4,332 nucleotides of DNA from a virus. Lineage: Duplodnaviria > Heunggongvirae > Uroviricota > Caudoviricetes. The stretch's first letter is position 1; each line of letters begins with the position of its first letter. Shown one piece after another: positions 2,250-3,605 of the stretch. A model generated the notes under the pieces. It saw only the letters and a list, made by a program, of their open reading frames with translations. It was not told the DNA's origin and made no database searches. Location of the stretch: the IMG/VR virus record IMGVR_UViG_2531839675_000018; one strand, given 5' to 3'. The position numbers were made by a program, and so were the translations under genes.

Positions 2250-2963
2250 ATGGTTGTTGTCTGTTCAGTTATCATGGTTTGCTCCCCAATTAATATTTTT
2301 CTTGAAAAGGATACGTTGTCACTTAAGCCCGGCTCAGTCGTTCTGGCCACCAAATGCATCAGGGCGCTTTTCCTTATGCATTATGGCAAAGTTAAAATTT
2401 TCGATATAAACCATTCCATAGTAAGTCAATATCTGGAAATTCAGCATAAGCTGACAAGAACTCATCTGACTGACGTTCCGCTTTATCTGTCACTGGAACC
2501 CAACAACCCTGCGTTGGCTGAGGCTTTAATTACCAGCCAGAGATTTTCCGGAGATACCACGGATATGTTTCTTATGATGGCATGCCTGTCGCTGTTTGAA
2601 TCAGATGAACGGATATTATTATTTTTAAGTGGATGTTTATCCAGTATAAGTGCCAAAGTCAGGGCGATAATTCAGACAGATATATCAGCAAGCTGGACGC
2701 TTGGTGCGATTGCGTTACGCCTGCATATGAGTGAGAGTTTGTTAAAGATAAAACTGAAAAATGAAGGGCACATGTTCAGTCGCTTGTTGCTGGAAGAGCG
2801 GATGCGTGTTGCTGTCAATATGTTATGTTCCCGGCATGGATATGGACAGGCTGTAGCAGAAAAATGCGGTTATTCAAGCTGGTCCTACTTTATTTCTGTA
2901 TTTCACCGCTATTATGGCTTCCCGCCAGACAGATATGTATCCAGGCAAGGGCTTGATTATTGA
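2250..2963 (+). CDS. AraC/XylS-family transcriptional regulator, YdeO/GadX-like (prophage-encoded Psr/PatE-type regulator candidate), 237 aa
   Basis: The C-terminal region has the AraC-type HTH (…WTLGAIALRLHMSESLLKIKLK…AEKCGYSSWSYFISVFHRYYGFPPDRY). The N-terminus MVVVCSVI… and blocks such as ISESLLKxKLK and AExCGYxSxSYFI match E. coli YdeO as I recall it. By my hand translation the gene has about 7 ATA, 3 AGA, 3 AGG and 3 CGG codons in 237 codons, and it is AT-rich. Confidence 0.85.
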   Translation: MVVVCSVIMVCSPINIFLEKDTLSLKPGSVVLATKCIRALFLMHYGKVKIFDINHSIVSQYLEIQHKLTRTHLTDVPLYLSLEPNNPALAEALITSQRFSGDTTDMFLMMACLSLFESDERILLFLSGCLSSISAKVRAIIQTDISASWTLGAIALRLHMSESLLKIKLKNEGHMFSRLLLEERMRVAVNMLCSRHGYGQAVAEKCGYSSWSYFISVFHRYYGFPPDRYVSRQGLDY

Positions 2964-2991
2964 TTTTCATCTGATTATTATTTTTTGACCC

Positions 2992-3067
2992 AGCCCTTTA
3001 GCTCAGTGGTGAGAGCGAGCGACTCATAATCGCCAGGTCGCTGGTTCAAATCCAGCAAGGGCCACCA
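2992..3067 (+). tRNA. tRNA with anticodon CAU, closest to tRNA-Ile2 (ileX-like, lysidine-dependent AUA reader); ileZ-like phage tRNA
   Basis: Hand-folded cloverleaf: D-stem GCTC/GAGC, anticodon loop CT-CAT-AA, T-arm GCTGG-TTCAAAT-CCAGC, and an encoded 3' ACCA. Overall it is close to E. coli ileX as recalled. It has A:C mismatches at positions 1:72 and 27:43. A Met identity cannot be excluded from sequence alone. Confidence 0.75.
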
Positions 3068-3074
3068 TCACATA

Positions 3075-3151
3075 CCGCCATTAGCTCATCAGGAAAGAGC
3101 GCCAGCTTTCGAAGCTGGTTGCGCGGAGTTCGGGTCCCCGAAGGCGGTCCA
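3075..3151 (+). tRNA. tRNA-Arg (anticodon UCG), atypical
   Basis: Hand-folded cloverleaf: D-stem GCTC/GAGC with GG in the D-loop, a perfect anticodon stem CCAGC/GCTGG with loop TT-TCG-AA, and an encoded CCA at 3149-3151. It is atypical: C1-G72, a mismatch at 6:67, a mismatch in the T-stem, and T-loop TTCGGGT with G where A58 is expected. It could be a functional phage tRNA or a degenerate copy. Confidence 0.55.
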
Positions 3152-3164
3152 TTATCTGTATCCT

Positions 3165-3241
3165 GCGTTGTTAGCTCAGCCGGACAGAGCAATTGCCTTC
3201 TAAGCAATCGGTCACTGGTTCGAATCCAGTACAACGCGCCA
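3165..3241 (+). tRNA. tRNA-Arg (anticodon UCU; reads AGA)
   Basis: Clean cloverleaf: acceptor GCGTTGT/ACAACGC, D-stem GCTC/GAGC, perfect anticodon stem ATTGC/GCAAT with loop CT-TCT-AA, T-arm ACTGG-TTCGAAT-CCAGT, discriminator G and an encoded CCA. Confidence 0.85.
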
Positions 3242-3255
3242 CACTTATTTTCCCT

Positions 3256-3281
3256 GGCTCGCTTTTGCGGGCCTTTTTTTT
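3256..3281 (+). terminator. Rho-independent terminator immediately downstream of the tRNA cluster
   Basis: GGCTCGC (3256-3262), loop TTTT, GCGGGCC (3267-3273) giving a 7-bp stem with one G-U pair, followed by eight T residues (3274-3281). Confidence 0.7.
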
Positions 3282-3478
3282 AAATGTCTCACAATTCAGG
3301 CGGTTGACTGTTGTCTGGTTTGCGGGGAGTTTGTTAAAAGAAACTGGCATGGTGAATCCCCCTGTGCGGAGGGGCAATCAGCGAGTAGGTATATGGGATA
3401 ATCGCGGATTCAGGTGCTGGTACTGAATTCACCGGGAGGCACCCGGCACCATGCAATGGCACATAGCGCCACTCTCCA

Positions 3479-3502
3479 GCCCCTCTCCGGAGGGGCTTTC
3501 TT
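3479..3502 (+). terminator. Hairpin with weak U-tract (terminator candidate, + strand)
   Basis: GCCCCTC (3479-3485), loop TCCG, GAGGGGC (3490-3496) form a perfect 7-bp stem, followed by TTTCTT. Confidence 0.35.
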
Positions 3503-3508
3503 ATGGAC

Positions 3509-3537
3509 AAAAAAAGCCCGCGCAGGGAGACGCGGGC
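3509..3537 (-). terminator. Rho-independent terminator on the minus strand (orphan: no convincing minus-strand gene upstream of it)
   Basis: GCCCGCG (3516-3522), loop CAGGGAGA, CGCGGGC (3531-3537) form a perfect 7-bp GC stem. On the + strand it is preceded by seven A residues (3509-3515), so on the minus strand the hairpin is followed by UUUUUUU. Confidence 0.55.
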
Positions 3538-3605
3538 GGCAAGGAATAAACAACAAAACGTGAAGTAATATTTCAGCTGGCGAATAATATCCGACAGTAA
3601 TCACT

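Follow-up and report, generated by a model that had tools for sequence, protein, structure and literature searches.

Three tRNA genes stand side by side in the window analyzed here, a 4,332-nt stretch recorded in IMG/VR as DNA of a tailed phage, and two of them carry mismatched or unusual bases. The locus thus raises the question of whether the trio supplies three functional tRNAs for codons that are rare in Escherichia coli or whether some of the genes are degenerating copies. The features on which the answer depends are the following:

279-659: antiterminator Q gene; the trio lies downstream of it, in the late region
2250-2963: AraC-type HTH gene, the upstream neighbor of the trio
2953..2981, plus strand: sigma-70-like promoter candidate (TTGATT, 17 nt, TATTAT; hexamers matched at 9 of 12 positions), 10 nt short of tRNA 1
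2992..3067, plus strand: tRNA 1, a tRNA-Ile2 gene, ileZ allele with A1 (anticodon CAU at 3025-3027; CCA encoded; ARAGORN, Rfam 66.3 bits)
3075..3151, plus strand: tRNA 2, a tRNA-Arg(UCG) gene, argN allele (anticodon at 3109-3111; CCA encoded; ARAGORN, Rfam 42.9 bits)
3165..3241, plus strand: tRNA 3, a tRNA-Arg(UCU) gene, argO (anticodon at 3199-3201; CCA encoded; ARAGORN, Rfam 70.1 bits)
3256..3281, plus strand: intrinsic terminator (7-bp G+C-rich hairpin at 3256-3273, GGCTCGC TTTT GCGGGCC, then T8)

A known tRNA cassette in a defective prophage

ARAGORN and the Rfam tRNA model (RF00005, gathering score 29, matches over model positions 1-71, E-values from 2e-14 to 6e-7) gave the same ends and the same anticodons, CAU, UCG, and UCU, for the three genes. 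This agrees with the preliminary description of the locus, and ARAGORN and Infernal offered no other boundaries or anticodons. The mismatches listed in that description are likewise all present, the NC line of cmscan and a direct reading agreeing base for base. The genes are separated by spacers of 7 and 13 nt, and three adjacent tRNAs, each far over the Rfam threshold, are no chance pattern. A Plastid-ycf2 match on the minus strand over tRNA 1 (32 bits against a threshold of 65.7) was discarded as a mirror artefact.

Aligned to Stx2 phages, the window is homologous from position 2989, 3 nt before tRNA 1, to about 3282, the end of the T run, a conserved unit of ~295 bp. In this alignment the Ile2(CAU)-Arg(UCG)-Arg(UCU) trio is homologous to the annotated ileZ, argN, and argO genes, as had been anticipated. 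Because the ends of the homology match those of the trio plus terminator, the mobile unit consists of the three tRNAs and the terminator; because homology begins only at 2989, the promoter candidate lies outside the conserved cassette. This candidate overlaps the last codons of the AraC-type HTH gene, and we rejected it as a local promoter, since the two sites of this kind do not exceed chance (1.4 expected from shuffled sequence).

Matches were obtained to 297 records of the phage collection, the majority of them Stx2-converting phages; several name ileZ, argN, and argO, and identity to the records that do so is 93-97%. Gene order and spacing are identical in ~100 IMG/VR loci among the matches listed. 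The IMG/VR samples used throughout were anchored on exact patterns, so that allele frequencies drawn from them are biased. Together, the order CAU-UCG-UCU on one strand, the short spacers, the high identity, and the position between Q and the lysis genes identify the region as an already known element, the ileZ-argN-argO cassette that lambdoid (Stx-type) prophages carry. A Met(CAT)-Arg-Arg tRNA set has been reported between q and stx in Stx2a, Stx2c, and Stx2d phages (PMC7366253). Our full-text literature search by the gene names ileZ, argN, and argO returned nothing usable. We take the cassette to have been described in the late 1990s (the gene names also stand in GenBank records); its annotation in Stx phages and O157:H7 genomes goes back decades. 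The locus thus has little value as a discovery, the cassette being known and this copy being identical to hundreds of sequenced genomes.

The trio and its flanks are 100% identical to E. coli O157:H7 chromosomes, in which PGAP annotates the trio as tRNA-Ile, tRNA-Arg, and tRNA-Arg. The gene order in PV15-279 is RusA, antiterminator Q, a CPBP protease gene, a frameshifted TrmB-like gene, the AraC-type HTH gene, and the trio, followed on the 3' side by nanS-p, a SASA esterase gene that extends past the end of the window, and then by a holin gene, a lysozyme gene that IS3 interrupts, and a terminase gene with a frameshift. Given this annotated neighborhood, the idea that the window comes from an Stx phage does not hold: its host element is the late region of an stx-less, defective lambdoid prophage of O157:H7, and the trio occupies the spot where Stx phages carry stx. 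Directly 3' of the terminator lies an STnc100-type sRNA, then nanS-p; no stx genes are found there. The trio matches 5-10 places per O157:H7 genome.

The ileZ and argO genes

tRNA 1 is an ileY-like tRNA-Ile2, joining the CAU anticodon to C4, C5, G68, and G69 and called tRNA-Ile by PGAP. TilS recognizes C4-G69 and C5-G68, where tRNA-Met has U4-A69 and A5-U68 (PMC2500205), and tRNA 1 also has the IleRS determinants A73, U12-A23, C29-G41, A37, and A38 (PMC9976931 Table 1). Since the TilS and IleRS determinants are all present, we see no loss of identity elements in tRNA 1. For ArgRS, the determinants are A20, C35, and G36 or U36, with discriminator A73 or G73 and, for bacteria, also U73 (PMC9976931 Table 1); tRNA 2 has A20, C35, G36, and U73, and tRNA 3 has A20, C35, U36, and G73. 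The concern that identity elements for TilS or ArgRS might be affected is thus unfounded for C4-G69, C5-G68, the IleRS set, and the ArgRS bases A20, C35, and G36.

Two pairs of tRNA 1 are non-standard by cmscan, 1:72 (A2992.C3063) and 27:43 (A3018.C3034). At a further position, 6:67, the preliminary description had noted an apparently compensated change relative to ileX; the change from C:G to U:A is real, but it is not a special compensation, U6:A67 being the ileY state. A27.C43 occurs in all ileZ copies recovered, an invariance that is partly by construction because the scans and the matching pattern fixed 27 and/or 43 (position 27 in both scans, position 43 in the main one); it is also found independently in an Stx2a phage and in a non-O157 strain. 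A.C and G.U wobble pairs have equal geometry, and G26.A44 together with A27.C43 appears to be a conserved, co-ordinated replacement of the host A26.U44 and G27.U43. TmcA, the tRNA-Met acetyltransferase that forms ac4C, needs C27-G43, C30-G40, and G44, and the G27.U43 of tRNA-Ile2 is an anti-determinant for it (Ikeuchi et al. 2008, PMC2500205). The TmcA determinants are absent from tRNA 1 (A27.C43, G30-C40, A44), and A27.C43 may serve to keep a non-Watson-Crick pair where C27-G43 would invite mis-acetylation. The phage copy would in this way keep the anti-TmcA and TilS discrimination logic of tRNA-Ile2 using other bases. By sequence comparison, A27.C43 and U6:A67 are conserved family or ileY states, not decay.

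The mismatch at 1:72 has a different history. tRNA 1 equals the common ileZ except at position 1, where, among the matches listed, 141 of ~150 IMG/VR ileZ copies have G and 4-5 have A. The A1 copies all lie on the exact upstream sequence of the window, and G1 is found in at least 12 copies that share this upstream sequence over 300 nt; between the window and strain 2012C-4606, 1 of 341 bases differs, namely position 1 of ileZ. We estimate from row spacing in a spread sample that the exact A1 context occurs in ~300 complete genomes (the sampled rows being largely O157:H7) and its one-mismatch version in ~230. A1.C72 is a single G-to-A change that arose recently in the O157:H7 lineage. It costs 6 bits of Rfam score (66.3 instead of 72.5) and ~4 kcal/mol of cloverleaf stability; it probably weakens the acceptor end and may be tolerated because each genome has several other copies. 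For tRNA 1, the choice between functional variant and degenerating copy is thus settled differently for its parts, A27.C43 and U6:A67 being assigned to conserved states and A1.C72 to a recent point mutation. We also considered an initiator-like tRNA, A1.C72 being a formylation-type mismatch that stands here with G2-C71 and C3-G70, and rejected it because tRNA 1 keeps its TilS determinants and lacks the three G-C anticodon-stem pairs of an initiator (it has C29-G41, G30-C40, A31-U39).

tRNA 3 is fully canonical: its 21 pairs are all standard, its T loop reads UUCGAAU, and it is base for base the argO of Stx2a_1447.

The local genes create a demand for the codons that the trio would serve. Counted over 2,021 codons in the prophage genes nearby, the frequencies per 1000 are 12.4 for AUA, 5.4 for AGA, 6.9 for AGG, 4.5 for CGA, and 9.4 for CGG, against K-12 averages of ~4-5, 2, 1-2, 3.5, and 5.5, respectively. 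Service to rare codons, as originally suggested, is consistent with these values, AUA, AGA, and AGG being used 2.5- to 5-fold above the K-12 averages. The excess is large for the ileZ and argO codons and small for the argN codons (in what is a small sample), a pattern that fits differing constraint on the three genes.

Published AQRNA-seq data for strain EDL933 list Ile2-CAU-1, -3, -4, and -5 with base means of 5987, 647, 477, and 534, and Arg-UCU-1, -4, and -7 with base means of 4471, 3322, and 339 (PMC13185646 Data S5); these isodecoders were detected under non-inducing conditions (PMC13185646). Because the host sequences comprise only two Ile2 genes (ileX, ileY) and one argU, at least two of the Ile2-CAU and at least two of the Arg-UCU isodecoders in EDL933 are prophage-borne. 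The prophage Ile2-CAU isodecoders were detected as a group, with the A1 allele undistinguished among them. We conclude that tRNAs 1 and 3 most likely function in decoding rare codons.

Structure and alleles of argN

In a canonical tRNA elbow, the T loop carries T54-Psi55-C56 and A58, the reverse-Hoogsteen partner of T54, and all four stems are paired. tRNAs 1 and 3 have this elbow, whereas tRNA 2 has G58 and leaves 6:67 and 52:62 unpaired. Its T loop reads UUCGGGU, which puts the G at 3133 in position 58; the non-standard pairs reported by cmscan are A3080.A3142 (6:67) and A3127.C3137 (52:62); and it has C1-G72 and the discriminator U73 (3148).

To these features we compared other copies. Two IMG/VR pattern scans yielded, among the matches listed, 131 cassettes with a readable middle slot, with 45 different sequences. 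C1-G72, U73, and A20 are present in essentially all 131 copies and, being near-universal, are family traits. The oddities of tRNA 2 noted at the outset therefore fall into two groups, C1-G72 (and U73) belonging to the family and G58, A6.A67, and A52.C62 being, as far as the alleles tell, derived and uncompensated defects. The argN genes of VT2-Sakai and Stx2a_1447 are intact at the same sites (A6-U67, G52-C62, A58). The 131 copies, among the matches listed, divide into these classes:

All 21 pairs and A58: 34 of 131 copies
T-loop change only: 5 of 131
Stem mismatch only: 2 of 131
T-loop change plus stem mismatch, the class of the window: 59 of 131
Anticodon arm replaced or deleted: 31 of 131

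Rfam scores for the individual alleles are as follows:

Intact alleles, including VT2-Sakai and Stx2a_1447: 58.4, 56, 55.9, and 54.8 bits
Allele with G58 only: 54 bits
Allele with G3.U70: 45.5 bits
Window allele: 42.9 bits
Window allele plus A50.C64: 37.5 bits
Rearranged alleles: below 29, not reported

Across 35 different argN alleles of 77 nt, aligned to one another, no two-sided change occurred at any stem pair. Stem variation is one-sided or pair-breaking, 6:67 being broken in 10 of the 35 alleles and 52:62 also in 10. Diversity per site, measured over 88 copies, places the three genes and their surroundings as follows:

ileZ, outside the anchored 27 nt: 0.005
argO: 0.032
argN: 0.088
Spacers: 0.11-0.12
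Flanks: 0.19-0.27

The argN slot thus varies almost as fast as the spacers.

Folding predictions show the same alleles from another side. For intact argN alleles the minimum-energy fold is a perfect cloverleaf (-28 to -31 kcal/mol); the window allele does not fold so, its cloverleaf at -20.0 kcal/mol lying 9 kcal above the minimum free energy. Its best fold contains a competing hairpin of U54-G58 with C63-A67, which exists only through the derived G58 and A67. Nearest-neighbor folding ignores modifications and tertiary contacts, and we used it only for the relative loss of argN; we rejected minimum-energy folds as a decisive test of function, as the best predicted fold is not the cloverleaf for ileZ, ileX, and argO either. 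The ArgRS determinants being in place, the problem of tRNA 2 is likely to be one of folding, maturation, or stability and not of identity.

The exact window allele of argN is present in 560 of 5,426 complete E. coli genomes, in serotypes including O157:H7, O55:H7, and O111:H8, and VT2-Sakai-like intact alleles (≥95% identity) are present in ~900 complete genomes. Among 50,697 phage records the window allele was found in none and intact alleles in 216, an absence that is weak evidence because Stx phages dominate those records. Measured against what marks a pseudogene, tRNA 2 has lost conserved bases and pairs relative to intact homologues and is under relaxed constraint, and it is still identical in 560 genomes. 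The window argN also remains over the Rfam threshold and is called tRNA-Arg by PGAP.

The EDL933 table contains rows for Arg-ACG, Arg-CCG, and Arg-CCU and no row for Arg-UCG (PMC13185646 Data S5). The reference set, which the main text of that paper leaves unstated, or a count filter may have caused this absence, which would equally cover the intact argN of the EDL933 Stx2 phage; the missing row is thus no more than suggestive of a lack of mature product. The helper plasmid pRARE2 carries argN5, which is of O157:H7 origin, and in Rosetta2 only fragments mapped to it (10.1101/2025.08.20.671396).

Function of the cassette and comparison with known systems

The established view of the cassette is that it supplements decoders that are scarce in E. 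coli, for the benefit of AT-rich prophage and virulence genes. We propose that a precursor would arise by read-through from upstream (Q-modified late transcription at induction) and/or from a local promoter in lysogens and would then be cut into three tRNAs with genome-encoded CCA ends. Host TilS would turn C34 of tRNA 1, in which the known determinants are present, into lysidine, IleRS would charge it, and AUA would be read; tRNA 3 would be charged by ArgRS and would read AGA and AGG. In this way tRNAs 1 and 3 would supplement the scarce decoders for AT-rich prophage and virulence genes. The window argN has lost the A58 partner of T54, one acceptor pair, and one T-stem pair, and its product is most likely poorly folded, poorly matured, or unstable; the decaying gene would persist because it is wedged between two selected genes, ileZ and argO. 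These conserved neighbors flank it within 300 bp, and it moves together with them. Overall, we consider it probable that this is the known cassette with tRNAs 1 and 3 working and argN a decaying passenger; as for the window argN by itself, we think that it is rather likely a hypomorphic or dead passenger.

The main alternative is that all three tRNAs function, G58 and the two mismatches of argN being tolerated or even adaptive, so that the gene reads CGA and CGG for prophage genes. An identical allele in 560 genomes of several serotypes agrees with this, and that persistence could reflect selection rather than linkage; the score of 42.9 bits against a gathering score of 29, the ArgRS determinants A20, C35, and G36, the encoded CCA, and the local CGG usage of 9.4 per 1000 codons point the same way. 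However, inducible Stx2 phages carry intact alleles, each of the three changes abolishes a pair or replaces a near-invariant base without compensation, and the same lineage reaches worse alleles (A50.C64, at 37.5 bits, and the rearranged alleles that go uncalled). The slot moreover evolves nearly at the spacer rate, the predicted cloverleaf is 8-11 kcal/mol poorer, no Arg-UCG is listed in EDL933, and fragments alone come from pRARE2. We therefore regard a functional argN in the window as unlikely. That the damaged gene is kept as a non-decoding, tRNA-like RNA, whether as a decoy for tRNA-Arg-cutting toxins or as a precursor of regulatory fragments, would suit the fragments alone seen for an O157 argN in tRNA-seq, the intact anticodon loop, and the unchanged presence in 560 genomes of an allele with three uncompensated defects. 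Against this proposal, the many different destructive changes in other copies form a pattern of neutral decay, and linkage to ileZ and argO within 300 bp accounts for the persistence; we hold it to be highly improbable.

Decay might also extend to the whole cassette, with none of the three genes under selection and A1.C72 as the first hit on ileZ. On this account a defective prophage, in a genome with several further trios, would be free of selection on these genes; the IS3-cut lysozyme gene, the frameshifted terminase and TrmB-like genes, the 5-10 trio-matching places per O157:H7 genome, and the cost of A1 (72.5 to 66.3 bits; 4 kcal/mol of cloverleaf stability) are all in keeping with it. Against it, argO matches its counterpart in an Stx2a phage at every base and ileZ at all but one, the variation of ileZ is 17-fold and that of argO 3-fold below that of argN, and at least two prophage-borne Ile2-CAU and at least two Arg-UCU isodecoders are detected in EDL933. 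We consider decay of all three genes very unlikely and retain the reading in which argN alone decays. The 300-bp cassette would then be a natural example of gene-by-gene selection, with ileZ almost frozen, argO conserved, and argN decaying in various ways. Annotation pipelines count the window argN as working; if it is defective, the capacity of EHEC to decode CGA and CGG is overestimated, and, should pRARE2 carry the window allele, so is the benefit to be had from argN on this and similar helper plasmids.

The argN5 of pRARE2 belongs to the same family as tRNA 2, and its allele is either of the window type or intact; the recovery of fragments alone by tRNA-seq (BL21/Rosetta2) is as expected of a badly folding allele. 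The plasmid collection gave two matches, both large E. coli replicons. A scan with one genome per species identified no donor lineage of argN; it found the cassette in Escherichia-type contigs only, the other matches being native tRNA-Arg(UCG) genes, unrelated except for a shared anticodon arm.

Among host genes, K-12 ileY and ileX share with tRNA 1 the CUCAUAA anticodon loop, C4-G69, C5-G68, A73, U12-A23, C29-G41, and the same D and T arms. tRNA 1 differs from ileY at 7 positions and from ileX at 9. Where ileY has A26.U44 and G27.U43, tRNA 1 has G26.A44 and A27.C43, and it differs further from ileY by G at D-loop index 20, A59, and A1 for G1. K-12 argU and tRNA 3 share the CUUCUAA anticodon loop, A20, G73, the D arm, and the T loop, whereas their acceptor, anticodon, and T stems differ at many positions, at which the window copy keeps standard pairs; tRNA 3 is thus a phage-borne isodecoder distinct from argU.

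The closest known systems are the Stx2 phages (VT2-Sakai, AP000363; Stx2a_1447, AP012536; and the 933W type), which have the same three genes, order, spacing, and terminator at the same late-region place between Q and the lysis genes. In these phages the cluster lies upstream of stx2, whereas the window is without stx genes; in Stx2a_1447 it stands between a DNA methylase gene and stx2A, whereas an AraC-type HTH gene is its upstream neighbor in the window. The terminator is conserved in the Stx2a phage as well, homology ceasing after its T run. Within the tRNAs, Stx2a_1447 and the window differ at 9 of the 77 bases of argN, at one base of ileZ (base 1), and at none of argO.

Variant tRNAs in trio-type cassettes

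The middle slot of the cassette, occupied by argN between ileZ and argO, has been remoulded in other prophages, including the trio-type loci L133, L032, L147, L161 and L202. We place two of these alleles as follows.

L133, 2136-2212, minus strand: middle-slot allele with an argN body and the anticodon UCU in place of UCG
L032, 12235-12311: remoulded middle-slot tRNA

One middle-slot allele, present in five copies, carries G3.U70, the pair that serves as the alanine identity pair. At least 13 loci hold a tRNA with the anticodon UUU on the acceptor and D-arm body of argN, followed by tRNA-Thr(UGU) and tRNA-Gly(UCC). A further group of argN slots, 80-81 nt long (25 copies; L119, L135, L156 and others), retains the T arm and both halves of the acceptor stem and has unrelated sequence (…GAAGAGCAGACGACACGATAACAGGGTTGTTGG…) in place of the anticodon arm; neither ARAGORN nor Rfam called a tRNA in these slots.

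Two trios stand in tandem, 1.9 kb apart, on the same contig in L104.

L104, 3579-3828: first trio, with window-type argN (G58, A6.A67 and A52.C62) and normal argO
L104, 5498-5749: second trio, with intact argN (A58, all pairs formed) and an argO whose T loop is altered

The T loop of this second argO reads TTAGACT, with loss of the conserved C56.

Variation also reaches the first gene of the trio. In phage ON470586.1 (vB_EcoS-611R1, match H4), the ileZ homologue is annotated as 'tRNA-Pseudo-TAT', and according to that annotation its anticodon has changed from CAT to TAT, a change that would permit reading of AUA without lysidine.

Cargo genes and defects of the prophage

About 2.3 kb of cargo at 38-42% G+C lies between the antiterminator gene Q and the tRNAs, and comprises genes for a CPBP intramembrane protease, a TrmB-like regulator (frameshifted) and an AraC-type HTH protein.

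Window, 805-2963: cargo genes
L001 (a trio locus), 9944-12281: cargo genes

Downstream of the tRNAs, an IS3 element interrupts the lysozyme gene and the terminase gene is frameshifted. Because of these two lesions, the prophage is defective.

Small-RNA positions downstream of the trio

Two features follow the trio terminator in the window.

3318-3508, plus strand: STnc100 sRNA (RF02076), Rfam match, 138 bits, E = 1.7e-31
3537-3516 (region 3505-3580), minus strand: terminator-like hairpin of 8 pairs followed by T7

In L104 and L137, the position matching this hairpin is occupied by AgvB, the anti-GcvB sRNA (RF02702, 96.5 bits). The sequence upstream of the window hairpin is unrelated to AgvB, and thus the hairpin may belong to a different small RNA.

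The strong STnc100 match lies immediately 3' of the trio terminator, an order that recurs in at least 10 further trio loci. Phage Stx2a_1447, of the Stx2a type, carries stx2AB between the trio terminator and STnc100; in the window STnc100 directly follows the terminator, which by this comparison gives the window the look of an 'empty site' lacking stx.
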